DNA from: Torpedo marmorata
Lineage: Eukaryota
Reading direction: 5' to 3'
NCBI GenBank assembly: GCA_977017645.1
Contig: OZ360222.1
Span: forward strand, 211,296,001 to 211,360,000
Length of the DNA stretch: 64,000 nt
Part shown: positions 7,523-63,129 of the stretch, in pieces
Position numbering within the stretch: position 1 is the first letter of the stretch
Layout: each line of letters opens with the position of its first letter
Program-made: the position numbers and the translations under genes
Notes under the pieces: generated by a model
The model's input: the letters and a program-made list of their open reading frames with translations, nothing else
Databases searched by the model: none
Told to the model about the DNA's origin: nothing

Positions 7523-8819
7523 ATGAATCCTGACATAGACCGGCAGAATAATGCTTCCATTCATGTATATATTGTGCAGCAGTCAAATAACTATTAAATG
7601 AAACATGTAAGGCAATAGGGTTTGGTATTATAGTCTCAGCTTTATTGTTGATGTTTCAAATAAAAATTTTAAATGCAGATATTCCAGTCAACAAGAAAAT
7701 AAAGCAGCAGAGAATTTAAACAGTATGAAGAGAAATGTAAACAGATTAAACATCAGCTCCCTGAATCATCAGAAGTGAAAGCAATGGATATTACAAGCCA
7801 ATATCTCTGACACACAAGCAAGTTTGATCTGCAGGATTTAAATAATGCTATTGCCAAGCACTTACTGGTAGCAATTTCTCTCAAGGTCATTCAGGTCCCT
7901 ACTTGCTTCCCCATTAGTTCATGCAGGGATATAAGGTGTCTGAAAATGCAAGCATATGAATAACTGGGTGAAGTACTAAAAATGGATTATTGTAGATTTG
8001 ATGGTGTAGCTGAGTCAATTCAAGAGGAATTCTGTTTAACAAAAGTGAGGACCCTGTTACCTTTTACCAGAGTTCAGACAAAAAGATAATTATGAATGAG
8101 GAAAGCTGTTTCACCCTTGTTAATATGTCAATCTAGAATGACTCAATTATTTCCTGGTCTATTCTTGGGTTATTGACACCACCTCTCAATCAAGAGATTT
8201 ATTTATAGCGTTAATCATCACACATTGCTTGAAAGTAGGAGTATGGAGGAAGGCAGAATGTTTTGAAATTTATTTTTGAATGTTTCATGAAAACTTTTCT
8301 TTCAAAAGTTTGGGAAGACAAGGAAACAAAAAAGATATTCCATTGAGGATTAAAACGTACCATTAAATATTGTGTAAATGCCAGTAACCTGCTGCTGAAA
8401 TCATTATGGACAGAGAGAGACTTCCACCTAACATTAAAGGAACTAACCAGAATTATGGCAAAAGAAGCAACTTGAGGTTCTACTCACAAACCTCAGGAAG
8501 CCATCATGCAGGGTTTCCACTCGTCCAATCACAGGCCAGTTCAAATTTACAGAAATAGTTGAGGAATGGTAAATGATTCAATGACACACATTCCTGAACT
8601 AAGGATTCTGAGGAACAGGATTTACAGCTTCTAACAGATAACAATATGAAGCAGAAATTCCAATTATTATCCCTAGCAAGATCAGAACCAGTCATACAGG
8701 CATAATAAGAGAAACAATTATGGTAGTAGTGAAGGGAATCAGAGAGATTATAAACAAAAGATTGCTTAAAAGTCAATGAAGCGAAAATGATCACACTTCG
8801 AATACAATGTTGTGACCTT

Positions 8820-43982: not shown

Positions 43983-44488
43983 TTTTCTTTTCACCTCATG
44001 CAACATTAATATTTTTAATGTTTTTTATATAGTCGGTAGGAGAGAAGTACGGAAGAAACCAAAACGACTGCTTCAAGGGGAAGGAGGCCCATAAACATTG
44101 AGCAAAGTGCTAAGGGGGCCATAGCCAAAAAAAAAGGTTGAGAATATCTGACATAGAACATAGAACATTACAGCACAGGAACAAGCCCTTCAGATCAACT
44201 ATCTGCATTGACTATGATGCCAAATTAACCTAATCCCTGCACATGGTCTGTATCCCTCTACTTTGTTCATATGCCTAACTCAAGTTTTTCTTCTGTGCAC
44301 TTTGTGACAGATCCCAGATTCTCCTCTGCAAATCTTTCCTCTAGTATTTCATTTTACTTTAAAGCATCCTCAGCCTTTCAAATTAATCTTTCTGAAACTC
44401 TTCTAATATGGATCTTTGCTCCATGAGCAACAATATAAAGATGCCCCATCATATTGATGCCCTTCTGCAGCTTTGCTATTAACATTCC

Positions 44489-45081
44489 TGTAAGAGCCGT
44501 AAACTTAATTACCTACCTTGGCCGCGGCGCTCCGATGGTCTCGGCGGGTTACGGAGGAGTCGCGGTGTTTGGTGGGCCATGCTAGGACTATTTTGTGTTC
44601 TGCGCGTGCGTGGGAGTGCCGATGGGTGCATGCGGAGTTGGGAAGTTACGGTAGTATGGGCGGTGGAGTGTGTGCGGTGGAGTATGCGCGGTGTGGTATG
44701 CGCGGTGGAATGTGTGCGGTGGGCATGCGCGAATTGGGGTAAAAAGAATAGGAAAAGATGGCGACGGAGGAGGGTGAGTGAGATCGCCATATCTTTCATT
44801 CACCTTTTAAACTCGTTTCATTTATGGTTTAAAGTCGTTACATTGAACATTTAAATACAGTCAAAGGAATCGTTTAAAGGAATTCATTAAACATCGTTAT
44901 CAAGAACTGTTTCTATTTTGTTTAAAGAAGATATTTAAGTCATTGAAGATTGCTGCAAGTCACGTGTGTAAATAAAGTTTTTTTAACATATCGGACTTTG
45001 TTAGTAAATTAATTGAAACGCGTCAAAAACAAGTATCTCACCTAGCCTCCAAGTGACTATTGTTGGATTGAAGTCACTATA
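44489..45081 (+). repeat. BEL 5' LTR (593 bp)
   Basis: TGTAAGAGCC...GTCACTATA; direct repeat of 62426-62990 with two extra 14-bp units. Confidence 0.92.
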
Positions 45082-45530
45082 TAATTAGTCAATAAAAGTG
45101 ATTGTTTGGAACAGAAAATTGAAGGAAATAAGATAGAATAATCTCTCTGTGCTTTGGACTGATATTTAAAATAAAATGGTGGCCATCTTGGAGATGCCTC
45201 GAGTTGGGGGCAGTTTGTAATCCACATCCATCTGCCATGAGTAACAGCCAGAGAGGGATTTAAAGCTTCAAATCTTATAGTAAAGTGTTCTATAAATACG
45301 TTGGAAAAAACATTTTTGGAAAATCAGCGATATTATTGACGGATGTTGTGGTTGAAACTCATTTGTGAATAGCAGCACATTACAGTCATCTGAAGTGGTA
45401 GGCATAAGTCTGTGGACTCCTTCTGTGTATCTTTGGCAAGTTAGAACACAGATTGGATTTGCTGCCGCTGGTCCATTGGGGACTGTTGATTTGGCTGGTG
45501 TTGTGTATGCTTGAAGGACAGTGGAACAAG

Positions 45531-47901
45531 ATGAGTAAAATGGCCGCAGCAGCCTCTGATACAGCAGCCACTGATATATCAGCAGCTGACGCAGCAACCG
45601 CTGATGTTGCTGTTAAGGACCAACGTATTGAAGACATGAAGGTTGCGGATATTAAAAAAAAATTGAAGAGACTGAAACAAGATATAAGTGAAAATAAAAA
45701 GGTTCTCATCGCAAGATTGAAGCTGGCAAAGGAAGAAGAAGCAGCTTTGTTAGATGAACAAGAAGATAACGTGCAAATGGCTGAAATTGTGTCACCAAAT
45801 GAAGAGGATGAAGAAAATGAAGAGGATGAAGAAAATGAAGAGTGTGAAGAAAATGAAGAGGTTGAAGAGGATGAAGAAAAAGAAGAGGATGAAGATGCAA
45901 AGGATGTACAATTCGAATTGGAGATGGAGGTAAGTATGAAGACAACATATGACCTGCAGGACGAAATACAAGCAAGTGACAGTGTCTCAAATGCTGAAAG
46001 CAGGAGAAGCAAACAAAGTTCTGGTTTGAGCTCCAGAGTTTCTCGTACTTCAAGTTCTACATTGTCACGTACGAAGATTGATGTTAACTTGGCCGCTCTT
46101 CTTGCACAACAAAAAACACTTAAGGATAAACATATTTTAGAACAAAAGGAGGAGCAGCTAAGACAAAAGGAGGAGCAGCTAAAGGAGCAGATAAGACAAA
46201 ATGAGGAGCAGCTGAAGGAGCAGATAAGGCAAGAGAAGGAGCAGCTAAGACAGAGAAAAGAAGAGCAGGAGCTGGAAGCAAACATTACTATTGCAAAAGC
46301 AAAAAAGAAAGCAATAGAAGGCTCAATGGTATCTGGTGCTAGAAGTAAATTATCTAAAGTGTCTGATAATAAAAGGTCATATTTAAAAAAAGAGTCGCAG
46401 GAAAAGAAACCAACCAAAAGGGTAGATATTTTAGAACCAGAGGTACAAGAATTGCAAATACAAGGACAAATCCTTCAAGAGCATATTGGTATCGAGTCAC
46501 ATGTACCAGTGGTAACATCTGAAGACAAAGCTGCCGCTTGGATTTGGTTGGACGATGCAGCTCCCTTGTTATTTGAGTCAAGCATCAAAAATATGGAAAA
46601 AACTACACCAATGAGGTTTCCAGATACATTACCTGTAACAAGAGGCGGTGAACAGAACAATGTATTGTCATCAAAAGGAAGACAAAATGAAATTGCTGCA
46701 TCATTGATTTAGTTACAGTCTCTCTCTTCTTTACCCAAGAAAGAGATACAAACTTTTGATGGTGATCCACTTCAGTACCAATCATTTATGAGATCTTTCA
46801 AACGCAATATTGAAAATAAATGCCAAGATCGTGATGAATGTCTTTATTATTTGGAAATGTTCATAAAGGGACATCCAAAAGAACTTGTAAAGAGTTGTCA
46901 ACATATGTCTTCAGAAAGAGGATTAGACAGAGCAAAGGCTTTACTAGAACAACATTTTGGCAACATGCATCGAATTGCTTTAGCTTATATGGATAAAGAT
47001 CTTAAATGGACATCAATAAAACAAAATGATGTAAAGGCTCTACAAGAATATACTCTATATTTAAGAGGATGTTGTAATGCCATGGAAGATATCGATAATA
47101 TTCGTGAGCTTGAAGTGCCTGGTAATATGCGAATCATCTTAGAAAGATTACCTTACAAGTTGTGGGATAGATTGAGAAATTTGGCTTGTGGTACACAAGA
47201 AAATTATAGTCGAAGAGCTACCTTAAAGGATTTTGTAAATTTTCTTGAACGACAGGTGTACATTGAAACAGATCCAATATATGGAAATATTAGAGACAAT
47301 TCAATAGGGAACAAAGATGTAAGGAGGTCTAACTCACAGCCTAGTCTGAAATTGAAAAGGAGTACTTTTGCTACTAATGTGTCAGTTATAAATAAAGAAA
47401 AGGACAAAGTAAATAAGGAAAAGGAAAGTTGCCTGATGAAAAGAGTTGTTTGTTCTGTAAAGGTGGACATGCTTTGGAAATGTGTTTACAGTTGGAAAAG
47501 AAGGAACATAATGAGAAGATCGCTTTCTTAAAGGAAAATGGAATATGTTTTAGCTGTCTGTGTAAAGGGCACGTCAGTAAAAACTGCGAGAAGCGAATTA
47601 ATTGTAACATATGTAAGTTGAAACATCCTAGAATTTTGCATATCCAACAAAGAAACAAGGAATTGGAAAAGGAGCAAACAGAAACAAAGGAAAGAACAGA
47701 AAACAATGTTATAATCTCGGTTCAGACAAGTGGTCTTACTGGGGCCGGTGTGAATAATTGCAGACTTTCAATAGTGCCTGTACGTCAAGACCAAGAAAGG
47801 GGATGCAACAGTACATACATATGCATTTCTCGACCCAGGCAGTACTGCATCTTTTTGCACGGAAGGACTAATGAACAAACTTAATATTCAAGGAAGAAGA
47901 T
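45531..47901 (+). pseudogene. BEL/Pao Gag and protease N-terminus (SAP-like motif, acidic tract, coiled coil, DUF1759-type capsid region, three zinc knuckles)
   Basis: LPKKEIQTFDGDPLQY; CLFCKGGHALEMC, CFSCLCKGHVSKNC, CNICKLKHPRILH; TYAFLDPGSTASF; one in-frame TAG at 46710 and frameshifts near 47440 and 47780. Confidence 0.9.
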
Positions 47902-49238
47902 TAGTGTGAGCTGCCTCAACGACTACCGGCCAGTAGCACTAACTTCTACTGTGATGAAATGCTTTGAGAGGCTGGTCATGGCCAGAATTAACACATACCT
48001 AAGCAAAGATCTGGACCCACTGCAATTCGCCTATCGCCACAATCGCTCCACAGCAGATGCAATACCGCTGGCTCTCCACTCAGCTCTGGACCACCTCGAA
48101 AACAGCAATTCATACATACGGTTGCTCTTCATCGACTACAGCTCGACCTTCAATACCATTATTCCCTCAGTGCTGGTCAAGAAGCTACAAACTCTAGGCC
48201 TCTGTACCCCCCTCTGCAACTGGATCCTTGACTTTCTCATCGGAAGACCTCAGTCAGTACGAATTGGAAACAACGTCTCCTCCTCACTGATTATCAACAC
48301 AGGTGCACCCCAAGGATGCGTGCTTAGTCCACTGCTCTACTCGTTATACACTCATGACTGTGTGGCCAGGCACAATTCCAATGCCATACACAAGTTTGCC
48401 GATGACACCACAGTTGTCAGCAGAATCACAAACGGCAATGAGGAAGCGTACAGGAGGGAGATAGATTAGCTCGTTGAATGGTGTAATGGCAACAACCTTG
48501 AGATCAACATCAGCAAAACCAAGGAGATGATTATGGACTTCAGGAGGAAGTCAGGGGAACACGACCCAGTCCTCATCGAGGGCTCAGCAGTGGAGAGGGT
48601 CAAGAACTTCAAATTCCTGGGTGTCAACATCTCCGAGGATCTGTCCTGGAGCATCCACGTAGATGCAATCACAAAGAACGCTCGTCAGCGGCTATACTTT
48701 ATGAGGTGTTTGCGGAGATTCGGTATGTCACCAAAGACTCTCGTAAACTTCTACAGGTGTACCGTGGAGAGCATTCTGGCTGGTTGCATCACTGCCTGGT
48801 ATGGAGGCGCCAACTCCCAGGACAAGAGTATACTCCAGAAGGTTGTTAACTCGGCCTGTGACATCACAGGCACCAAACTTCACTCCATCGAGGACATCTA
48901 CATGAGGCGGTGTCTTAAAAAAGCAGCCTCTATCCTCAAGGACCCCCACCACCCAGGTCATGCCCTCTTCACTCTGCTTCCATCGGGAAAAAGGTACAGG
49001 AGCCTAAAGACGAGCACTCAACGGCACAAGGACAGCTTCTTCCCCGCTGCCATCAGATCCTGAATAATCAATGAACCAAAGACACTGCCTTACTTTTCGT
49101 GCACTATTGTTTATAATTTTTTATAGTAATGTCATTAGATGGTTAATATGAATGTTAATTGCACTATGATGCTGCTGCAAAACACCGAATTTCATGACTT
49201 GTTCATGACAATAAATTCTGATTCTGATTCTGATTCTG
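47902..49238 (+). mobile_element. Rex1/Babar LINE subfamily A, 5'-truncated, in BEL protease
   Basis: RT motifs, stop at ~48467, (ATTCTG)n tail; BEL resumes IILKTMGQ. Confidence 0.94.
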
Positions 49239-49414
49239 AATTATATTGAAAACTATGGGACAAGAAAAGGTCGTTGAAACCAGCATTGTTAAAGGCTTAG
49301 AGGTTGCTGGATTGGATGACAAAAAATTTTGTGATCTTCCAATGTTATATACTCAGAAGACTATGCCTATGCATGAAGGAAACATTCCTCATCAAAATGA
49401 TGTACATCATTTAT
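49239..49414 (+). pseudogene. BEL protease segment between two Rex1 insertions
   Basis: LKTMGQEKVVETSIVKGLEVAGLDDKKFCDLPMLYTQKTMP is collinear BEL protease-region sequence. Confidence 0.8.
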
Positions 49415-51618
49415 CTCGACCACTGCTACATCACCGTGAAGAACGCATACCGAGCCATACCACGACTGCACTTCGGCAAGTCTGATCACCTGGCTGTACT
49501 TCTACTCCTGGCGTACAAGCAGAGACTGAAGACCACAGCACCAGTGGTGAGGACGGCGAAAGTATGGTCGAGGGGGGCAGAGGAGCGTCTGCAGGACTGC
49601 TATGAATCGGTGGATTGGAACATATTCAAGCAATCAGCCATAGACCTAAATGAATATGCAACAGGTGTCACTGACTTCATCAAGACCTGCGTGGATGAGT
49701 GTGTGCCCACGCGCAAACACAGGGTGTTCCCCAACCAGAAGCCCTGGATGAATCAGAGAATTCGCAACCTGCTGAGGATGAGAACAAGGGCGTTTAAGGC
49801 CAGGAACCGGGATCTTTACAAGAAGTCCAGGCACGACCTGCGGAAGGCCATCTCTGAAGCAAAGTGGCAATTCCGGAGGAAGCTAGAGACAGAGACAGAT
49901 ACACGCCAGCTATGGCAGGGAGTGCAGGCCATTACAGCCTACAAAGCGAGGGTGAACACTATAGATGGCGATGATGCTTCACTAACCGATGAGCTGAACA
50001 CCTTCTATGCCCGCTTTGAGAAGGAGAACAAAACAGTGCCTACTAGAATCCCTGAAAAAGGCTGAGGACCCTGTGATATCTGTCTCTGAGGGCGACGTCA
50101 GAACATCATTCAAGAGGGTGAACCCTCGCAAGGCGTCAGGCCCTAACGGCGTACCTGGCAGGGTACTGAAAATCTGCGCAACCAACTAGCTGGAGTGTTC
50201 ACGGACGTTCTCAACCTCTCATTGCGGAAGTTAGAGGTTCCCACCTGATTCAAAAGGGCATCAATCATCCCGGTACCCAAGATGAGTAGTGTGGGCTGCC
50301 TCAACGACTACCGCCCAGTAGCACTCACTTCTACTGTGATGAAATGCTTTAAGAGGCTGGTCATGGCCAGAATTAACACATACCTAAGCAAAGTTCTAGA
50401 CCCACAGCAATTCGCCTATCGCCACAATCGCTCCACAGCAGATGCAATACCGCTGGCTCTCCACTCAGTTCTGGACCACCTTGAAAACAGCAATTCATAC
50501 ATACGGTTGCTCTTCATCGACTACAGATCGGCCTTCAATACCATTATTCCCTCAGTGCTGGTCAAGAAGCTACAAACTCTAGGCCTCTGTACCCCACTCT
50601 ACAACTGGATCCTTGACTTTCTCATCGGAAGACCACAGTCAGTACGAATTGGAAACAACGTCTCCTCCTCACTGATTATCAACACAGGCGCACCTCAAGG
50701 ATGCGTGCTTAGTCCACTGCTCTACTCGTTATACACTCATGACAGTGTGGCCAGGCACAATTCCAATGCCATATACAAGTTTGCCGATGACACCATATTT
50801 GTTGGCAGAATCACAAACGGCAATGAGGAAGCGTACAGGAGGGAGATAGATCAGCTCGTTGAATGGTGTAATGGCAATAACCTTGAGCTCAACATCAGCA
50901 AAACCAAGGAGATGATTATGGACTTCAGGAGGAAGTCAGGGGAACACGACCCAGTCCTCATCGAGGGCTCAGTAGTGGAGAGGATTAAGAACTTCAAATT
51001 CCTGGGTGTCAACATCTCTGAGGATCTGTCCTGGAGCATCCACGTGGATGCAATCACAAAGAACGCTCGTCAGCGGCTATACTTTGTGAGGTGTTTGCGG
51101 AGATTCGGTATGTCACCAAAGACTCTCGTAAACTTCTACAGGTGTACCGTGGAGAGCATTCTGGCTGATTGCATCACTGCCTGGTATGGAGGCGCCAACT
51201 CCCAGGACAAGAGTAAACTCCAGAAGGTTGTTAACTCGGCCTGTGACATCACAGGCACCAAACTTCACTCCATCGAGGACATCTACATGAGGCGGTGTCT
51301 TAAAAAAGCAGCCTCTATCCTCAAGGACCCCCATCACTCAGGCCATGCCCTCTTCACTCTGCTTCCATCGGGAAAAAGGTACAGGAGCCTAAAGACGAGC
51401 ACTCAACGGCACAAGGACAGCTTCTTCCCCGCTGCCATCAGATCCTGAATAATCAATGAACCAAAGACACTGCCTTACTTTTCGTGCACTATTGTTTATA
51501 ATTTTTTATAGTAATGTAATTAGATGGTTAATATGAATGTTAATTGCACTATGATGCTGCCGCAAAACACCGAATTTCATGACTTGTTCATGACAATAAA
51601 TTCTGATTCTGATTCTGA
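49415..51618 (+). mobile_element. Rex1/Babar LINE subfamily A, 5'-truncated within the endonuclease
   Basis: HFGKSDH, KPWMN, RT ORF 50282-51448, (ATTCTG)n tail; TTATCT on both flanks (49411-49416, 51621-51626). Confidence 0.94.
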
Positions 51619-51621
51619 TCT

Positions 51622-52278
51622 TATCTGTGGAATGTTTATTTACCTGAAATTAACTCTGAGATAGAAATGCTGATTGGTTCAGATGTGCCAAAGGTTTTGG
51701 AACCACTAGAATTAATACAGAGTAGAAGGAATGGACCTTACGCTATTAGAACCAGGCTTGGTTGGACAATCAATGGATCATTGGAAAAAAATAATGATAT
51801 TGCTCAGGAACAGTTAGCGATAAATATTGACAGGATTTCGGTTGTGAAAGTTGATGAATTAAGGGAAGAGCAAAAGACTGTGAATAAGAAAATCACTTTT
51901 GAAGAAAAGATAACAGATCAATGTGAAAATAAATCAAAGGTATTTAAAACAACATTGAAAGAGTTATTTTCATCAGAAATGAATGAAAATGAAGTATTAG
52001 ATATTGCAAATAATACTATTGATTATTCATGTGTAATTGAATCAGATACAGGAATAAAACAAGTGACTGAGAACAAATCTGAATGTAGATTTTGTAGTTC
52101 AGAGGTTACATCAGACAAAGTTAATGAAGAAATATTGCAATGTGATGTAAAACTGGAGAACACAAGAAATTGTGCTGATGGAATAAAGAAGAATGTGAAT
52201 GATAATTTAATGCAATTGAATTCAGAGAACAAAATGTTGAAAAGGGAAAAGGAATTGGAAATATTAGATAATCATGAA
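51622..52278 (+). pseudogene. BEL protease C-terminal region fused in frame to non-BEL coiled-coil sequence
   Basis: [34 protein letters not shown] is BEL-typical; after ~51870 the frame stays open but has no RT motifs. Confidence 0.8.
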
Positions 52279-53716
52279 CGTCCCGGACGCCGCCATTCAG
52301 CTGGATGGGCTCGCTTTATTTAGGGCTGACAGAGATGCTGCTCTCTGTGGAAAAGTCCGTGGCGGTGGCTTGTGTGTTTACATCCACAGCGTTGGTGGAA
52401 TTTGTGACTGTCAGATGTAGACCATTTTATCTACCACGGGAATTTACCACGGTCCTTACAGTTGGAGTGTACATCCCCCACAGCGCTAATGCCAAGGAGG
52501 CGATCTGGGAACTGTGTAGGGCTATAAGCGAACTGCAGACCGCACACCCTGATGGACTGCTGATTATCACTGGCGACTTCAACCAGGCGAACCTCAAGAC
52601 AGGGCTACCAAAATTCCATCAGTATGTGGACTTTGCTACGAGAGGGGCGAACGCGTTGGATCTTGTGTTCACGAACATTTCCGGCGCGTATCGGTCAGAG
52701 CCCCGCCCCCACCTCGGATACTCAGACCATATCTCAGTAATGCTAACCCCAGCATACAGACCGTTCGCCAGACGCTCCAGACCAGTTTGGAAGCAGGTTA
52801 AAACCTGGCCAGCAGGTGCCATCCATGCACTTCAGGACTGCTTTGAGCGTACTGATTGGCACATGTTCAGGGAAGCAGCAACCGATGGTGACTGCATCAA
52901 TCTGGAGGAGTATACGGCATCGGTGACTAGCTACATTAGTAAGTGTACTGACGAAGTCAATGTGCCCAAGAACATCATTACTCACTCTAATCAGAAGCCA
53001 TGGATGACTGCGGAGGTGCGTGTGCTGCTGAGGAGCCGAAACTCTGCCTTCAGTGCGGGCGACAAGGTAAGCCTAGCTATCGCAAGAGCCAAGCTGTCTA
53101 AGGCCATCAGGGAGGCAAAGCGTGCACATGCCCAGCGAATTCAGAGTCACTTTCAGGACAGCAAGGACACGCGACGCATGTGGAAGGGCATTCAAGATAT
53201 CGCTAACCACAAGACTACACCATCTGACTGTGCTGGTGATGCCTCCCTCCCAGATGCACAGAACAACTTCTACGTGCATTTTGAGGCAAAAAAATGATGT
53301 AGTGGCAAAGAAGACAACCCCTCCTCCAAATGATCAGGTGCTGTGTTTCACAGTGGCTGATGTGAGGAGAATGTTAAGCAAGGTTAACCCACAGAAAGCT
53401 GCTGGGCCAGATAACATTCCCGGCAGAGTGCTCAAGGGATGTGCGGCCCAGCTGACTGATGTTCTCATCGACATCTTTTTAAAAAAAATATTTTATTTAA
53501 AATTTTTAAATCACACAATACACAGTTTAAAACGCAAATTTCTCAAATTACATGTGATACATTTTCACCCCCCCCTCCCTCCCTCCCTCCCTCCCCTCCC
53601 TAACCCTCCCGAAAAGAAAGAAAGAAGAAGAATAGGATAAAGTAAGGAGAATGTCAATCTAAAAAGAACAACTATAAACTGATCTTATTGTGGAGGATAG
53701 GCTCGCCAGCCAGATC

Positions 53717-56700
53717 CGATGTCCAGAGATCTTCAAATCCTTAAACCCACAATTTTTATATATATGGGCTCCATACTTCCAAAAAGAAATAATACTTATC
53801 ACGTAAATTATATGTAATTTTTTCGAGTGGTATGCATGAACGCAATTCTGCGTGCCATCTTTCCAAACCCAAATCTACATCCGACTTCCATGTTGTGGCA
53901 ATACATTTCTTAGAAACGGCTAAAGCAATACGTAAAAACTCTGTCTGGTACATATTTAATTTCACTTTAACACTGGTTCCTTCAATATCTCCAAACAAAA
54001 ATATCATAGGATCCATTGGAAGTGTAGTTCCTAATACTTTATCTAAAAAATTTTTAACTTTCAACCAAAAATCATAAACTTTTGGACAAAACCATGTAGA
54101 ATGTACAAAAGAACCTTCCTCTTTATTACATCTAAAGCATAAACCAGATAATGTCGGATTAAATTTCTTTAATTTTTTAGGTGTTAAATATAGTTGATGA
54201 AAAAAATTATATTGCACCAATCTATATCTAACATTAATAATCTTCGTCATACTTTGTTTACATAATTTTTTCCAGTGTTCTTCATCTATTGTTACATTCA
54301 AATCTTTTTCCCAATTTAATCTTGATTTATGAATTCCTGTTTTAGGAAGTTTCCTCTGTAGCAATCTGTACATTTGAGAAATAAATTTAGGCACACCTCC
54401 ATTAGTAACTAATAATTCCAATTCAGTCTGTCTTGGTAAGGTCAAACCGCGGCCCAACCTTTCCCCTAAAAACGCCCTAATTTGATAATAAGCAAAGATT
54501 GTATTATTTGCTACACGAAATGTATCTTTCATTCTCTGAAACGTAATAAATTTACCAGCTTCAAAACAGTCATTTATTTCCTTAATTCCCTTTTGGTACC
54601 AAATTTTAAATAGTTGATTATCGACAGTAAATGGAATAAGATCATTTTGATATAGAGGCATTCTTCGAGAAATTGATCCTTTCGCTCCTATTTCTCTATC
54701 CACTCTATTCCATATTTCTAACAAGTGCCTAAAAATAGGAGAATTTTTCCCTCTTGTTAATAATAGTTTAGAATGAATTTAAATATGTATCAAATTGAGT
54801 TTTTGAGAATTGCTTTAGCGGTTGCTAAGAAATGTATCGCTATCACTTGGAAATCTGATGTAGATTTAGGTTTAGAAAGGTGGCACGCAGAACTTCGTTC
54901 TTGTATACCACTTGAAAAAATTACTTATAATTTATGTAACAAATATCATTTCTTTTCGAAAATATGGAGCCCATATATAAAATTGGTCGGCTTAAAAATA
55001 ACAATTTGAAGATCTCTGAACATTGGATCAGGCTGGTAACCTAATTTCCACTAAAATTTTAGTTTATAGTTATTTTTTAGTCTAGATTGACATTCTCCTT
55101 AGTTTTTCTTTTCTTTTCTTTACTTTATTTTATTTTATTTTATAGATTAGTAGGGGTGGGAGGGTTAGGGAGGGGTGGGGGGGTTAGGGTGGGGAGGGTG
55201 GTTGGGAGGGAGAAAATATATCACATGTATTTTGATAATTTTGCGATTTATATAATGTATTTTGTGATTTAAAATTTTAAATAAAATATTCAAAAAAAAA
55301 AAAAAAAGAATTAATAATAGTTTAGAATTCCATTTATAAATGACTTCTTCTTTCAAATCCTCTCCTATATTATTTAATTCTATTCTCATCCAAGCAGAGA
55401 GCTTCCCTCAATCAAACAATTCGTTAATAAATTTTAGTTTGGCTGCTTTATAATAATATTGAAAATTAGGAAGCTTTAGACCGCCCATTTCGTAGTTCCA
55501 GGTTAATTTCTCCAATCCTACTCTCGCCAACTTTCCTTTCCACAAAAATGTCCTAATAATTAAATTTAAATCCTTAAAAAACTTCTGAAGGATTTCATAA
55601 GGAATTGATTGAAAAAGATACTGAATTCTCGGAAAAACGTTCATTTTAATACAATTTACCCTTCCCACTAAAGTTATAGGCAAATCCTTCCATCTCTCCA
55701 AATCCTTTTTTATATTCACAAATAATGGTAAATAATTTAATTTATACAAATTGGATAATTTTGTATCAATCTTTATTCCCAAATATTTAATTCCTCCCTT
55801 TGCCCATTTAAATTGTGTAATTTCTTTACAATCGCTATAGTCCCCTTGTGTTAAAGGCATAATTTCACTTTTATCCAAGTTAATCTTGTAACCAGATATT
55901 CCCCAAAATTCTTTCAATAAAACAGACAATTGTGTTAGAGAATTAATAGGTTTTGTCATATATATCAATTCGTCATCTGCAAACAAACTAATTTTGTGTT
56001 CTTCCTTACCAACTTTAATACCTGCAATCTTACTATCTTGTCTAATTAATTCGGCTAAAGGTTCTATTGCTAAAATAAACAATGCTGGCGATAAAGGACA
56101 ACCTTGTCTAGTAGACCTGGTTAAGGAAAATTTTGAAGATATTTGACCATTTGTGACCACTCTAGCAGATGGTTCTTTATATATAGTTTTAATCCAATTA
56201 ATAAATGTATTTCCAAAACCAAATTTTCCCAGTACCTTAAATAAATAATTCCACTCTAATCTATCAAAAGCCTTTTCGGCATCTAATGTTAATACGAATG
56301 ACAGTTCTTCTCTTTTTTGTGCCACGTTTATTAGACTAATTAATCTAGCGATATTATCTTTTGAATATCTGTTTCTAATAAAGCCTGCCTGATCTCCATG
56401 GACTAAGTCTGGTAAGAACTTAGCCACTCTGTTTGCTAAAATTTTCGCCATTATTTTATAATCCACATTTAACAACGATATTGGTCTATATGATTCTGTT
56501 CTCAACAAGTCTCTATCTTTTTTCGGTATAACTGTTATTAATGCATTGGTGAAGGATTCCGGTAGAGAATGGGTTTCCGTTATTTGTTTTAACACCTCCA
56601 TATAAGGAGGAATCAATATGTCCTTAAATTGCTTATAAAACTCTGATGGGAAACCATCCTCCCCCGGAGATTTCCCACTTGTCAAAGAACTAAGAACCCC

Positions 56701-58077
56701 ATCGACTTCCCTCATCGTAAATGGTGAATCTAAAGATTCTTTACTAAGTGTATCTAACCTGGGCATCTTAATTTTGGATAAAAATTTGTTAATTTTAGAA
56801 TCATCTTTATCGGCTTGAGATGTATATAAATTCAAATAAAAATCTTTGAAAGAATCATTTATTTCTCGCGGTTTATAAGTTATTTTCTTAGAATTCTTTT
56901 TTATAGCCGTTATAGTTCTAGAGGTTTGTTCCTTCTTTAATTGCCAGGCTAAAACTTTATGAGCTCTTTCTCCCAGTTCATAATACCTTTGCTTAGTCCT
57001 TTCAATGAGTTTTTCCAATTTATATGTTTGTAACGTATTATAATATAACTTTTTCCCAATTAAATCTTTCTTCTTTTCTTCTGATCTCTTTTTTTGTAGA
57101 TCCTTCTCCAAAAATTCAATCTCCTTCTCCAAATTATCCAATTCCTGAATATTTTCCTTCTTAACTTTTGCTGAGTAACTTATTATCTGACCTCTTAAAT
57201 AGGCTTTCAAAGCATCCCAAATAATAAATTTGTTTTCCACGGAATCCGTGTTAATCTGTAAAAATTCTTGGATTTCTCTTCTTATATATTTACAAAAATC
57301 CACTCTCTTTAGTAAAGAAGAGTTAAACCTCCATTTATATATAATTTTTTCTTTTTCTGGAATTATGCACGACATTAATAAAGGCGAGTGGTCAGAAATT
57401 AATCTAGCCTTATATTGTACTTGAGTCACCCTATCCTGTAATTGTGATGACAGCAAAAACATGTCTATTCTAGAATAAGAATCATGTCTAGAGGAATAAA
57501 AGGAGTAATCTTTTTCTCTCGGATTCAACTTCCTCCAAATATCAATTAGATTCAGGTCTTCCATCATCGTTAGAATTCTCTTAGCAGTTTTAGTTCTAAT
57601 AATTGATTTGGATGTTTTATCCATTACTGGGTCCAGACAACAATTAAAATCTCCACCAATTAAAATATTATCGTATGCCTCTGACAGATGCATAAAGGAA
57701 TCTTGAATAAATTGATCATCTTGCGTATTCGGCACATATATATTCATAAGAGTCCACATTTCTGAGTATAACTGACAGTTTATTAAGACGTATCTTCCTG
57801 ACCCATCAGTAACCACTGAATGTATTTTAAGGGGTAGCTTCTTATTAATTAGAATAGCGACCCCTTTAGCCTTGGAATTAAATGAAGACGCCACCACTTG
57901 ACCAACCCAATCTCTTTTCAACTTCTGATGTTCTAAATCAGTCAGATGCGTCTCCTGTAATAAAGCTATGTCTACATTCAATTTTTTGATGTGCGCTAAA
58001 GTTTTCTTCCTTTTAATAGGGTTATTGAGCCCATTTATATTAATACTAACTACATTTATTAATTTACAGTCCACCAT
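53717..58077 (-). pseudogene. L1 ORF2 (APE endonuclease, RT, Cys-rich C-terminus), interrupted
   Basis: NINGLN, LQETH, GDFN, SRID, SDH, QGCPLSP, FADD in the 889-aa ORF; C-terminal part 53756-54724; end coordinate approximate. Confidence 0.93.
54775..55310 (+). mobile_element. Short 5'-truncated L1 inserted antisense into the full-length L1, 18-bp TSD
   Basis: TSD TTAATAATAGTTTAGAAT at 54757-54774 and 55311-55328; poly(A) 55292-55307. Confidence 0.93.
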
Positions 58078-58463
58078 TGCTGATGTACAATAACTTTCTC
58101 TCCCTCGGATCCGCTGGCTCCCCCCCCCCCCTCATCTGTAAACTATTTGACATCTCCTTAGAAGAAAAAAGAGAAAAGGATATAAAAAGAGAATAGAGAA
58201 CTAGAGAACCCCCTATATATAATACTGGTAAATTCACACCAGTACTACCCCCCTCCATTGCTCGGGAAGTGGCCCTCGCCACTAAAATGATGCGCGACTA
58301 GGTCGAGGAAGACCAGAAGTCCACCTCCCCCATACAGATTCCGAACAAATTATGTTATCGTCTCTTCGTCAAACAACTCCAAGATTCCTATTAACTTAAT
58401 CTTCATCAGTTACTACCCCATTGACATGTTCCAAAACTCTTGACGAGAGCAATTTTAAGCCAA

Positions 58464-59823
58464 TCAGATGATTTGGTGACGCTCCGTAAAACCTTGACCT
58501 TTCTTTGAGTCCGGAAGCATATTTGCATGATGTAAAGCTTCTTGGGGATCAGTAAAGAACATTGATTGGTTCTCTGCAGACTGAACTCTCAATGTCGCAG
58601 GATACCTAAAAGAAAATTTATAACCTTTTCCCCACAAAACCGCTTTTGCCGGATTAAATTCCTTCCGTTTCTTTATGATTACCGAACTCAAATCCGCGTA
58701 GAAAAATACCCTGCTCTTATCGATTCTCAACGGGCCCTGCTGAATTCTTGCCTTTTGAATAGCCAATTTCAATATTTTTTCCTTATCCTGATATCTTAGG
58801 CATCTAATTAGAATTGAGCGTGGCCTTTGATCAGGATACGGTTTCCTCCTGCTATCCCTGTGGGCTCTGTCCAGTTCAAGTCCATTCAGAAAGTGATCCT
58901 TTCCTAAGGTCTGCGGGATCCAGTCTTGAAAAAAAGTAGTTGGATTGGTTCCTTCAAAATCCTCGGGTAGTCCCACAATTTTAATATTATTTCTTCGGCT
59001 TTGATTTTCTAATACATCTAATTTTTGTAAAAGTTTGTTCTTTTGCAGCTCCCAACCCGTGAACGAATCTTCCACTTTGTCCACTCTGTCTTTGTAGTCC
59101 ACCAAATCTTCGTCGTGTTCCTCAACCTTTTCTTCAATTTTCTTAACCCTCCATGATACTTTATCCACAATGATAGAATGCTTCTTCATATCCTCTTTAA
59201 CAGCTTTTATTTCTTCCCTAATTGCTTTAAATCCATGTTGCATACGTTGATTCAGTGATGCAACTTCTTTTGTTAATCTGTCCATTGCTTCTATAAGTGA
59301 CTTTGCTAACTCTTGCCCACCTAAAAGCATTGGAGCCTCCTCTTCATCACTTTCTTCTTCCTCCCCCTCTCCCTCCATCTCTTGTAATCCTCCTTCCCAT
59401 TCATGTTCTTCTTATTCCTCTCTTCTTCTTTCCCCTGGATCTGCCGACGTTAATATATCCTGCTCAGCTTCACAGCTGAGCGTTAACGTTTATCTGTCAC
59501 TGTCAGCTGTGGCTGACAGTTCTCGAGCGATTTTGCGCATGCGCGTCGTTTCGCGCATGCGCGGCGGGTCCGCCGGAAGTTGTACGACCGGAAGTTGTAG
59601 TTCTTTACAACTCCGGGCCCCAGCGCCATTTTCCACAGTTCCCCGGGAGGACGGCGTTGGTGCTCCAGGTACCTTCGCCGTCTTCTTCTGTGTCTTCCGC
59701 GGGGGGAGAGGAGCTTGTTCCCGAGGCTCCAACACCAAGGTAGGCCGATTATTTTCCTGACCTAAACTTTCCCTAAACACTGATTTCTTTAATTTCCCTT
59801 CCTTCATTCTCTTACTGGACATC
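58464..59823 (-). pseudogene. L1 ORF1 (coiled coil, RRM, CTD)
   Basis: ENQSRRNNIKIVGLPE, LDRAHR, FRYPATL; upstream ORF 59490-59843 is in the same frame, separated by two TAA stops. Confidence 0.9.
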
Positions 59824-61324
59824 CCTGAACCTTTCTTCCACACTTTAACTTTATCTTAGTAACTCTAACTTTCTTTTAGTCTATTTTTAATTAAATCCGA
59901 TGGGAGAGGTGTAATAACCCGTCTCCACCTCACGTCATCACGTGACACCCCCCCCTCATCGACATCTTTAACATTTCCCTGAGCAGTGCCGTGGTTCAAA
60001 TGTGCTTCAAAGCTGCTACCATCATCCCCGTGCTGAAGAAGTTGACGGTGTCCTGCCTCAATGACTACCGCCCTGTCGCACTCACATCTACCGTCATGAA
60101 GTGCTTCGAGAGGCTCGTCATTAGGCACATCAAGCTTCTGCTGCCCACCTCACTGGACCCCCTGCAGTTCGCATATAGATCAAACCGCTCCACAGATGAT
60201 GCCATCATTACCACCCTCCACCTAGCACTCACCCACCTGGAAAATAAGGACGCGTATGTTCGAATGCTGTTTATTGACTTCAGCTCGGCATTCAACACGA
60301 TAGGGAAGTTGACGGGGCTGGGCCTAAACTATACCCTCTGTAATTGGATTCTAGACTTCCTGACGGGGAGACCTCAGGCAGTCCGGATTGGAAACAGCAC
60401 TTCCAAGGTCATTACATTGAGCACGGGGGCTCCCCAGGGCTGTGTGCTTAGTCCATTGCTGTTCACCCTGCTGACTCATGACTGTGCAGCAAAACACAGC
60501 TCGAATCACATCATAAAGTTTGCTGATAATACAACCGTCGTGGGCCTTATGAGTAAGAATGATGAGTCAGCATATAGAGATGAGGTGCAGTCGGTAATGG
60601 AATGGTGCGGAAACAACAACCTGCAGCTGAACAAAAGAGTTGGTTGTTGACTTCAGAAGGGCCCGGGGGGATCATTCTCCTTTGACCATGGACGGCTCTA
60701 CCGTTGAGGTCGTAAAGAGTATCAAGTTTCTTGGAGTGCACTTGGCGGAGAGTCTCAGCTGGTCCCTCAACACCAGTTCCATAGTCAAGAAAGCCCAGCA
60801 GCGTATTTACTTCCTGTGAAGACTGAGGAAAGTTCATGTCCCACCCCCTATCCTTACTACATTCTACAGGGGATGTATTGAGAGTATTCTGAGCAATTGC
60901 ATCACCGCTTGGTTTGGAAACTGTACCACCTCGGACCGAAAGACCCTGCAGAGGATAGTGAGGGCAGTGGAGAAAATTATTGGAGTCTCTCTCCCCACCA
61001 TGACAGACATTTACAAATGAGGAAGGCTAAAAACATTATGAAAGACTTCTCACACCCCTTTGGTAAACTGTTTTCCCCTTTGCCATCTGGAAGGAGGTAC
61101 CGAAGCACTCGGGCTCGTTCGTCCAGACTGTGCAACAGTTTTTTTCCCCCAAGCCATCAGGCTCCTCAATTTCTAGATATATATGCGTATTAGCATGTTA
61201 TAGTTTTTCTATTGTATTATGATATTTATGTACATCTGCTGATGGTCCTGGAGAAACACTATCTCGTCTTACTGTGTATATGGTAATGAATGACAAATAA
61301 AGGTGACTTGACTTGACTTGACTT

Positions 61325-61891
61325 GAAAACAATAAACAGAAAGATTTAATTGTAAGTAAAATTCGCAAAGTCAGAAAGCGGAAGAAAAGAATAACTGCTG
61401 AAGAAATGAATACAGTTATTGAGGAAAGAGATTCAGCATTATCAAAATGTAAAAGGTTGGAGGAAGAGATTAATATTTTGAAAGAGAACAAGTTATTGGT
61501 TAATAACACAAAACAGTTGACTATAGAAAACAATCAAGAATGTAAATTGAATGTTCAGCTACTAACAATGCAGAAAGAAAGTGATATTGCATTGCAGAAA
61601 TGTAACAAGCAAGATGAAGAAATAAAAAAATTTCAAGTTTACCTCAGTAGGGTTGACAATAGAAATATCAATGTATCACATGATATTTTCACTTCAGATC
61701 AAGTTATTAATTTCTCGGAAAGAACTGAGACTGAATTGAAAGTCGCAAAATTGGATTTGGAATTGCAGGAAAAGGCAATAGATACCAGAGTGGTTAAAGA
61801 GACTCATTTATTAAAATTGAGAGGATCAGATAAATATTCAAATTCTAGTTCTAAGAGTTTAAATTCTTCACATGAGAAGTGGAATACTTAA
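61325..61891 (+). pseudogene. MIPOL1: Coiled-coil coding segment inside the BEL element with a MIPOL1-like region (captured fragment, not the host locus)
   Basis: RITAEEMNTVIEERDSALSKCKRLEEE...NN..LT.ENNQE..L...LL.MQ...EEI....VY versus human MIPOL1 recalled as RITAEEMSALIEERDAALSKCKRLEQE...NNMRHLTAENNQERALKAKLLSMQ...EEIQTLRVY. Confidence 0.8.
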
Positions 61892-62035
61892 GAAAGATAT
61901 AAAGTGAAACGACATGCTGAAGAAGTGCCTCGTGTTAAATTCAAAAGAAAAGCTGTATCTATTTTGTCTGAGGAAGATTTGAGGTTTACTGGTCGACGTC
62001 TTAACTCAAAGATTCTGGAGATAAAAAAACTTTGA

Positions 62036-62218
62036 GGAGACTTTGTAATTATTATGGATATTTCAACTCCAAGAAACTCCTGGTTACTTGGAAAAATTAT
62101 TGAGACTATTCAGGACAAAACGGGACTTGTGCGTCAAGTTCGAATTAAAACTAAGACTGGCTTTCTAAATAGTCCTATTGACAAGGTCTGCCTTCTGTTG
62201 AAGACGGAGGAACTTTGA
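62036..62218 (+). pseudogene. BEL integrase C-terminal domain (DUF5641 type)
   Basis: GDFVIIMDISTPRNSWLLGKIIETIQDKTGLVRQVRIKTKTGFLNSPIDKVCLLL; not in the ORF track, translated by hand. Confidence 0.88.
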
Positions 62219-62425
62219 TAAATACAAACTGACTTTATTTGTTGTTGTATACTTCACAGGTTACAGACTTTTGTTGATTCAGAGTTATGGTAAACTCTGG
62301 TCTTATGAAGAAAGAAGAAAGAAGATTTGTATATTATTTAAATGTTATATGGTTATTGTTATTTATAATTGATTGTGTAATTATTATTTAAGACATTGTG
62401 TCTAATTATAATAATTAGGGGCCGG

Positions 62426-62990
62426 TGTAAGAGCCGTAAACTTAATTACTTACCTTGGCCGCGGCGCTCCGATGGTCTCGGCGGGTTACGGAGGAGTCGC
62501 GGTGTTTGGTGGGCCGTGCTAGGCCTATTTTGTGCTCTGCGCATGCGTGGGAGTGCCGACGGGCACATGCGCAGTTGGGAAGTTACGGTAGTATATGCGG
62601 TGGAGTGTGCGCGGTGGAATCTGCGCAGTGGGCATGCGCGAATCGGTGTAGAAAGAATAGGAAAAGATGGCGATGGAGGAGGGTGAGTGAGATCGCCATA
62701 TCTTTCATTGACCATTTAAACTCGTTTCATTTATGGTTTAAAGTCGTTACATTGAACATTTAAATACAGTCAAAGGAATCGTTTAAAGGAATTCATTAAA
62801 CATCGTTATCAAGAACTGTTTCTATTTTGTTTAAAGAAGATATTTAAGTCATTGAAGATTGCTGCAAGTCACGTGTGTAAATAAAGTTTTTTTAACATAT
62901 CGGACTTTGTTAGTAAATTAATTGAAACGCGTCAAAAACAAGTATCTCACCTAGCGTCCAAGTGACTATTGTTGGATTGAAGTCATTATA
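62426..62990 (+). repeat. BEL 3' LTR (565 bp)
   Basis: TGTAAGAGCC...GTCATTATA followed by the TSD. Confidence 0.92.
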
Positions 62991-63129
62991 ATTCCTTCCC
63001 TGTTTATCTCCAGAATATTTTCTTGTCATTCGTACCTCCCCACCATTTTAACCTACCTTCAGAGGTCATTATTCAACATTCACCATTTTGGTTAAATGCT
63101 TTATTTTTTTTAAATAAAGCTGTCTCTAC

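Follow-up and report, generated by a model that had tools for sequence, protein, structure and literature searches.

The element at the locus, its genomic copies and its cargo

The window analysed here is a stretch of 64,000 nucleotides (nt) of Torpedo marmorata DNA (assembly GCA_977017645.1, contig OZ360222.1:211,296,001–211,360,000, forward strand), and it contains, on its + strand, one decayed copy of an ~5.9-kb non-autonomous BEL/Pao long terminal repeat (LTR) retrotransposon family. Behind its last pol-derived codons this copy carries a cargo that, from comparison with the host genes (below), is almost certainly a chimera of spliced host exons of BRCA1, MIPOL1 and Elongin A, and the MIPOL1 exons in it are joined across a back-splice-type junction. 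The features of the window copy are as follows (amino acids, aa; target-site duplication, TSD; long interspersed element, LINE; C40, the host contig of MIPOL1):

44484–44488, +, 5' TSD ATTCC, equal to 62991–62995
44489–45081, +, 5' LTR with TG...TA ends
45507–47780, +, gag, with SAP-like N-terminus, acidic and coiled-coil repeats, DUF1759 core and CCHC region
47781–47901, +, protease, first piece, with an FLDPGS motif near 47832 and a frameshift near 47783
47902–49238, +, nested insertion 1, 3' portion of a LINE with a terminal (GATTCT)n, not in other copies
49239–49414, +, protease, second piece
49415–51618, +, nested insertion 2, a longer stretch of insertion 1's LINE family
51619–51868, +, protease end and last pol-derived codons, 86–90% identical to pol-bearing BELs
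51869–52278, +, captured BRCA1, two spliced exons, resuming after insertion 3 to about 61341
52279–61324, +, nested insertion 3, a LINE ending in (GACTT)n, split by minus-strand L1-like DNA
61342–61647, +, captured MIPOL1, three spliced downstream exons, aa ~451–553
61647–61648, +, back-splice-type junction, C40:64385712 donor joined to C40:64591881 acceptor
61648–61792, +, captured MIPOL1, upstream exon pair, aa 295–~370, shortened in frame by an 81-nt deletion
61792–62013, +, captured Elongin A, aa ~424–468 and 510–533, with a private stop at 61889
62014–62035, +, end of the old pol frame, final codons and stop codon (62033–62035), family-wide
62036–62218, +, integrase C-terminal tail (DUF5641, E 4.6e-11), apparently re-acquired behind the stop
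62417–62425, +, purine-rich tract ahead of the 3' LTR, a candidate polypurine tract by position
62426–62990, +, 3' LTR
62991–62995, +, 3' TSD ATTCC

The gag of the window copy gives domain matches to DUF1759 (E 6e-6) and SAP (E 0.007), and an ATG stands at 45507 in 26 of 29 copies and at 45540 in 29 of 31. The purine-rich tract is of a motif type that we take to be a polypurine tract. LTRs usually have TG...CA termini; those of this family end in ...TATA, not CA, in nearly all copies (window 45078–45081 and 62987–62990).

We searched the 6.22-Gb genome to which the window belongs and took the best 40 scored matches to each half of the cargo (94–97% identity), the 40 copies retrieved being picked by their likeness to the window copy. 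The original prediction for this locus was that removal of insertion 3 joins the halves ...ILDNHE (52278) and NNKQKDL (61328) in frame, and these halves do adjoin, in a common frame, in all 40 other copies; the idea that the junctions are private to the window locus is thus excluded. Two-LTR copies that lack the interruption are about 5.7–6.0 kb long, in agreement with the predicted ~5.9 kb. Among 21 two-LTR copies, whose LTR pairs are 92.7–96.9% identical, 13 have exact 5-bp TSDs, four have TSDs with one mismatch and four fail; together with the LTR pair of the window copy (540/562 identical, with one 28-bp indel) and its ATTCC on both sides, these values fit the further proposal that the element transposed in this form.

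The predicted lack of reverse transcriptase (RT), RNase H and the DDE integrase core also stood. For the pol-bearing relative L121, whose polyprotein has 2134 aa, the match to the window element is confined to aa 1–1011 and 2075–2126; its aa 1050–2050, which hold RT, RNase H and the integrase core, match 0–1 of the 40 copy loci and nothing in the window element. Relatives at 86–90% nt identity carry Peptidase_A17, RT and integrase; the family itself has the BEL-type gag (DUF1759), the integrase tail, paired LTRs and a 5-bp TSD. With the RT, RNase H and integrase core absent from nearly all loci, this family is a non-autonomous derivative of a BEL/Pao retrotransposon, and it has transposed as such thousands of times. 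A 27-nt pattern across the MIPOL1 back-splice junction occurs at 8,802 genomic places (control 0), a value that sets a lower limit on copy number. In four runs from four organisms, contigs cover 30/30 bins of the cargo region (L029:1700–3950); in runs X2–X4, from three further organisms, the 30/30 bins are covered by short contigs, and one X4 contig bridges the back-splice place.

MIPOL1 was first suggested as a cargo source by Atlas, as a lead only, and Pfam did not recognise the window-type cargo. The cargo of one natural copy matches electric-ray MIPOL1 (E 1.7e-37) in two blocks in reversed order, and a genome search with the electric-ray MIPOL1 protein found both the host gene and a less diverged sister subfamily of the element, whose downstream cargo is Elongin A (PF06881, E 6.7e-16; best match E 7.1e-71). 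A search of 1.84 billion proteins with the upstream cargo gave three matches, each of them a protein named BRCA1, the best being skate BRCA1 (E 8.6e-50), and the host BRCA1 gene was then located by family search. Each of the three host genes has its own contig, C61 for BRCA1, C40 for MIPOL1 and C41 for Elongin A; there, four, seven and five exons, respectively, were located with GT/AG ends, and the introns between them are exactly removed in the element. The sister copies (L061–L078) carry four BRCA1, six MIPOL1 and five Elongin A exons at 90–100% nt identity to the host, and their Elongin A extends to about aa 620 and so takes in the beginning of PF06881; this subfamily is rare, accounting for one of the first 100 junction matches listed. 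The window copy keeps two BRCA1, five MIPOL1 and two Elongin A exons at 72–91% identity: its BRCA1 exons are 72% and 77% identical to C61:25497366-230 and 25488548-270, its downstream MIPOL1 exons 91, 84 and 86% and its upstream ones 77 and 89% identical to C40, and its Elongin A exons 81 and 90% identical to C41. The Elongin A BC-box region is present in the sister subfamily and not in the window family.

All three host pieces are in their native frames, and the three capture junctions are in frame. Short words are shared between donor and acceptor at the switch points (about 9 nt at pol/BRCA1, 5 nt at MIPOL1/integrase in copy L145, 6 nt at Elongin A/integrase and about 2 nt at BRCA1/MIPOL1), a comparison made without a chance model, and between MIPOL1 and Elongin A there is a 19-nt linker. 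As in LTR-mediated retrocopies, host exons free of introns are set between separated arms of a single LTR element.

Three LINE insertions are nested in the window copy. Target bases are missing at insertion 1. Insertion 3, originally labelled Rex1-B, is a LINE by its endonuclease and RT matches, and nested in it, at 53390–59900, is L1-like DNA with an ORF2 (open reading frame 2) at 55408–58131 (endonuclease and RT, 907 aa, minus strand), an ORF1-like frame at 58464–59411 and an inverted repeat (53756–53970/54768–54982).

Reading frame, terminator and selection

Stops were counted per alignment column across the copies, and a single frame without a majority stop extends over 1324 codons (45405–62033), as expected from the predicted open frame from Gag through the cargo. 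The prediction that only two point stops interrupt this frame in the window copy, at 61889 and 62033, fared less well. The stop at 61889 is nearly private (1/35 other copies), as supposed, but further private stops lie at 46710 and 47331 (0/34 and 0/35 other copies), and the frame shifts near 47428 and again near 47783. Decay does not account for the stop at 62033: it is present in 35/35 copies, and 129 of 150 tail matches lie within an open frame exactly 60 aa long. Many relatives finish the same codons at the pol terminator and have no tail; at ≤1 mismatch the genome has 3,394 places that end at the pol stop without tail and 4,348 with stop plus tail (reversed controls 0). On these alignments the 62033 stop is the inherited terminator of pol, with the tail added behind it, and the match of the tail to helper integrase from directly behind the stop indicates re-acquisition outside the frame. 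Of the polyprotein originally envisaged, running from Gag and protease through the cargo into an integrase tail, the DUF5641 domain at 62036–62218 is thus present, but the stop places it outside the frame of this subfamily. Only in L145 is the frame open into DUF5641, and there it is MIPOL1 that runs in frame to that domain.

Deletions shared among copies give a further view of this frame. In a tally of 65 copies against four references, in which the value given by most references was taken (lengths shift with private indels of the reference) and deletions more than about 700 nt past the junction, where copies are not homologous, were left out, the shared cargo deletions are 285/282, 24, 87, 54, 120, 81, 300, 195, 282, 291, 30 and 111 nt long, so that 12/12 are multiples of three. 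The 285-nt length comes from one reference only, yet frames are open across this deletion in the long-form copies; an apparent shared 8-nt deletion was rejected as two separate events. The chance of such an outcome over the three samples is about 2e-6 if one third of deletions keep frame and 2e-4 if one half do. Since 3.9% of changes are stop-creating, about 4–7 stops are expected on the element's branch, and none is fixed in spite of 12–20% divergence. The selection on the frame that was suggested at the outset is borne out by these deletions and stops, and we are confident, as far as comparison of copies allows, that the reading frame is or has been under selection.

The amino acids of the cargo appear only weakly constrained. 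Over 302 codons of cargo compared with the host genes, net synonymous divergence (dS) is 0.249 and nonsynonymous divergence (dN) 0.154, a ratio of 0.62 (0.42–0.95) by a method without transition correction; the sister cargo differs from the host by dS 0.050 and dN 0.037, the window family differs from the sister with dN/dS 0.73 (0.50–1.20), and the within-family baseline in the cargo is 0.85–1.01. Two other sets of ratios were set aside as evidence for selection: the gag-protease dN/dS values between window family and sister (0.39 and 0.25) were withdrawn because this region was swapped from a different helper lineage, and the value of 0.08 for the integrase tail likewise reflects helper divergence. 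Against near helpers the gag-protease ratios are 0.35 (0.15–0.79) and 0.52 (0.26–1.03), values mixed with the helper's own branch.

Why, then, would the frame be kept? A stop just after protease would leave a long untranslated tail open to nonsense-mediated decay. Selection may act on translation from Gag to near the 3' end and not on cargo amino acids, and Gag made in cis would package its own RNA together with helper Gag-Pol; this is the least certain step of the mechanism that we propose. We lean somewhat towards such a read-through or RNA-stability explanation over a role for the cargo protein, because the cargo shrinks and drifts and the dominant subfamilies have lost the BC-box region; the roughly 3,394 copies whose frame ends at pol's own stop also count for it.

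It is possible but doubtful that the cargo protein itself is selected. On this view protease would release a product useful to the element through its MIPOL1 coiled coil, its basic stretches or, in the sister subfamily, the Elongin A BC-box/cullin-box, which might for instance bring in an Elongin BC-cullin ligase to act on a restriction factor of the host. Human immunodeficiency virus Vif recruits just such a ligase against a restriction factor. All three pieces are in native frame, the dN/dS of cargo against host has an upper bound of 0.95, the sister's 291-nt deletion halts just short of the BC-box region and keeps it (PF06881, above), and MIPOL1 aa ~451–553 is untouched by any shared deletion. 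However, the dominant subfamilies, 99 of 100 among the junction matches listed, are without the BC-box region, the cargo has been deleted repeatedly, and the per-gene dN/dS intervals all include 1. The original suggestion that cargo protein is carried in Gag particles is for similar reasons not favoured, given the weak constraint on its amino acids and the continued shrinkage of the cargo.

Several observations weigh against the picture of a frame kept for read-through. The whole frame is open in no retrieved copy, the longest being 720 and 752 aa. Copies L127, L129 and L133 have a common frameshift about 25 codons before the end. In the sister, the exit from Elongin A is in another frame than integrase, and this frame closes after about 30 codons. 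Of the deletions confined to one copy, 8/20 to 12/23 are multiples of three, which is more than one third, and the cargo dN/dS of 0.62, slightly below 1, makes some protein constraint possible. The late shared frameshift and the sister's out-of-frame exit do fit a rule of reaching the 3' end, and not one of strict frame.

The permuted MIPOL1 exons and a proposed history of capture

In the host gene, the exon ending at aa 553 has its GT donor at C40:64385712, a pattern unique in the genome (one match), and the acceptor of the exon that begins with aa 295 lies 206 kb upstream, at C40:64591881 (three matches, one of them on the host contig). The element copies join this donor to this upstream acceptor base for base, and both ends are in phase 2, so the frame is kept. 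They match MIPOL1 aa 295–553 only and have no poly(A), and the electric-ray MIPOL1 isoforms differ at exactly these two exon boundaries. The host span (C40:64591881–64385712, minus strand) comprises 259 codons by the electric-ray protein, and with phase 2 at both ends a circle of it would have an endless open frame. In the sister copy L075 (positions 919–1880; C42 near 9563886), a 405-nt unit across the back-splice junction stands in tandem at 100% identity, with the frame open for 459 aa.

One copy preserves more of MIPOL1 than any other. L145 (C59:59655034–59658065) carries BRCA1, then MIPOL1 aa 445–553 followed by 295–~426, and then the integrase tail in frame, without Elongin A; it leaves MIPOL1 for integrase in frame at a 5-nt shared word. 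Of the 259 codons of the circle it keeps about 241, or about 93% of a full turn, and none of its MIPOL1 comes from outside the circle; its extra MIPOL1 part is found only in L145 and the host gene. At 33 sites where most sisters differ from the host it is sister-like at 24 and host-like at nine, which fits an early branch, although it could be a later recombinant. Ahead of BRCA1, L145 also has a remnant of pol, about 60 nt long, that derives from a place some 640 nt farther down in pol.

Taken together, the exact junction and the near-complete turn suggest that the MIPOL1 template was very probably a circular RNA (circRNA). A literature search for "circMIPOL1" found no paper. The permuted order could instead derive from a linear RNA with repeated exons (through trans-splicing or a lost tandem duplication) or from two switches on a linear mRNA. 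A back-splice junction alone cannot discriminate, there being other routes to non-colinear junctions (PMC4897178), and L145 could have recombined later with a linear MIPOL1 mRNA. We nevertheless consider a linear origin unlikely: the junction is exact at both splice sites, whereas the other template switches in the element fall mid-exon; all captured MIPOL1 DNA lies inside the donor–acceptor span and falls short of one turn; and the host exons are single copy, so that a tandem duplication of them is ruled out in this assembly.

The predicted helper BEL lineage is present in the genome, and both the gag-protease and the 3' end of the family follow pol-bearing BELs of that genome. Over gag-protease the window family is 86–90% identical to 10 of 18 sampled pol-bearing BELs, whereas the sister is only about 71–79% identical there, and these pol-bearing BELs are likely to be the helpers. 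The LTR 3' parts of two of them (L112 and L117) are 92–97% identical to those of the window family, the closest of the 18 sampled. Young pol-bearing BELs (L120, L121 and others) have frames of about 2,000–2,130 aa and LTR pairs up to 100% identical, and their Gag starts with a SAP domain (E 1.3e-8).

The element as a whole is probably a helper-dependent BEL/Pao element built by serial template switching, in which RT, working within particles, would have jumped at short shared words to host RNAs packaged along with the element's own, among them a MIPOL1 circRNA copied for nearly one turn, with RT and integrase supplied by the helper. The nested junctions, read without a tree, suggest the following order. 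BRCA1 and the MIPOL1 circle would first have been captured with the integrase tail in frame (the L145 form), after which Elongin A would have displaced the end of MIPOL1 (the sister form). Deletions may then have followed, with the frame rejoined to pol's last codons; gag-protease would have been swapped in from a newer helper lineage; and the integrase tail would finally have been regained behind the stop.

Two further explanations concern the cargo as such. Host sequence might act as camouflage, if small-RNA silencing of the element would also strike BRCA1 and Elongin A. Two of the three donors are core genes, and the sister copies are 90–100% identical to host exons; even so, the idea is improbable, as it leaves the keeping of the frame unexplained and the most numerous subfamilies are only 72–91% identical to the host. 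That the cargo is a mere passenger, open by luck or ascertainment in an element spread by its LTRs and packaging signal alone, would suit the near-neutral amino-acid change, the late shared frameshift and first samples picked by likeness to the window copy, but it is hardly credible given 12/12 shared deletions in frame across three samples, no fixed stop and three in-frame capture junctions.

Known systems and significance

Defective transducing retroviruses carry gag-onc fusions in which pol is replaced by spliced host coding sequence, and they are replicated by helpers. Unlike them, the element described here has no env, has spread in the germline, draws on three donors and gives no sign that the cargo amino acids matter. 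Maize Bs1, in the accounts of it given in PMC5131818 and PMC13317346, is likewise an LTR element whose chimeric frame draws on three host genes and whose copies have switch points in common; by those accounts it has 1–5 copies and one piece out of frame, whereas the present family has at least 8,802 copies, all pieces in native frame, one piece back-spliced, a vertebrate host and a BEL element as vehicle. The LTR-mediated retrocopies of animals treated by Tan et al. 2016 (PMC5131818) include multi-gene cases, among them a four-gene copy in mouse, and one mosquito BEL example. As there described, they share with our family spliced exons between discontinuous LTR-element arms and short shared words at the switches, but are single or few-copy, the older ones mostly with loss-of-function changes; the term "circRNA" is absent from the main text of that paper.

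Pseudogenes derived from circRNAs are also known, for example those of mouse circRFWD2, with 33–42 copies, LTRs enriched nearby and a mechanism called mysterious (Dong et al. 2016, PMC4897178). The likeness lies in the non-colinear exon junction, the restriction to exons inside the circle, the lack of poly(A) and the LTR association; here, in contrast, the circle lies within the element's frame, both switch points are readable, and there are more than 200-fold more copies. In the literature searched, which did not extend to subscription papers, supplements, Repbase or Dfam, we found neither a description of this family nor one of a back-splice junction multiplied within the reading frame of an element. 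Multi-gene LTR capture and circle-derived pseudogenes are thus both known, and the back-spliced, in-frame form in thousands of copies is a new variant of LTR-mediated capture of the Bs1 type.

Put at its fullest, a circRNA would have been reverse-transcribed in a particle, fused in frame with BRCA1 and Elongin A to Gag-protease and amplified into a large repeat family, whose cassette outlived its first helper by taking on newer gag-protease and 3' ends; in the boldest form of this account, which we offer only tentatively, the sister's Elongin A BC-box would be a captured ubiquitin-ligase adaptor. How circRNAs enter genomes was left open in PMC4897178. Within the LTR element described here the back-splice junction is exact, both switch points are legible and nearly a whole turn of the circle is preserved, and this points to a switch of template inside the particle. 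On the practical side, gene annotation, the mapping of reads and the calling of circRNAs will be confounded, here and in related genomes, by at least 8,802 copies that carry exon pieces of BRCA1, MIPOL1 and Elongin A together with a back-splice junction present as DNA. With its thousands of dated copies and its nested subfamilies of deletions, the family also serves as a natural experiment that separates selection on a reading frame from selection on the amino acids that it encodes.

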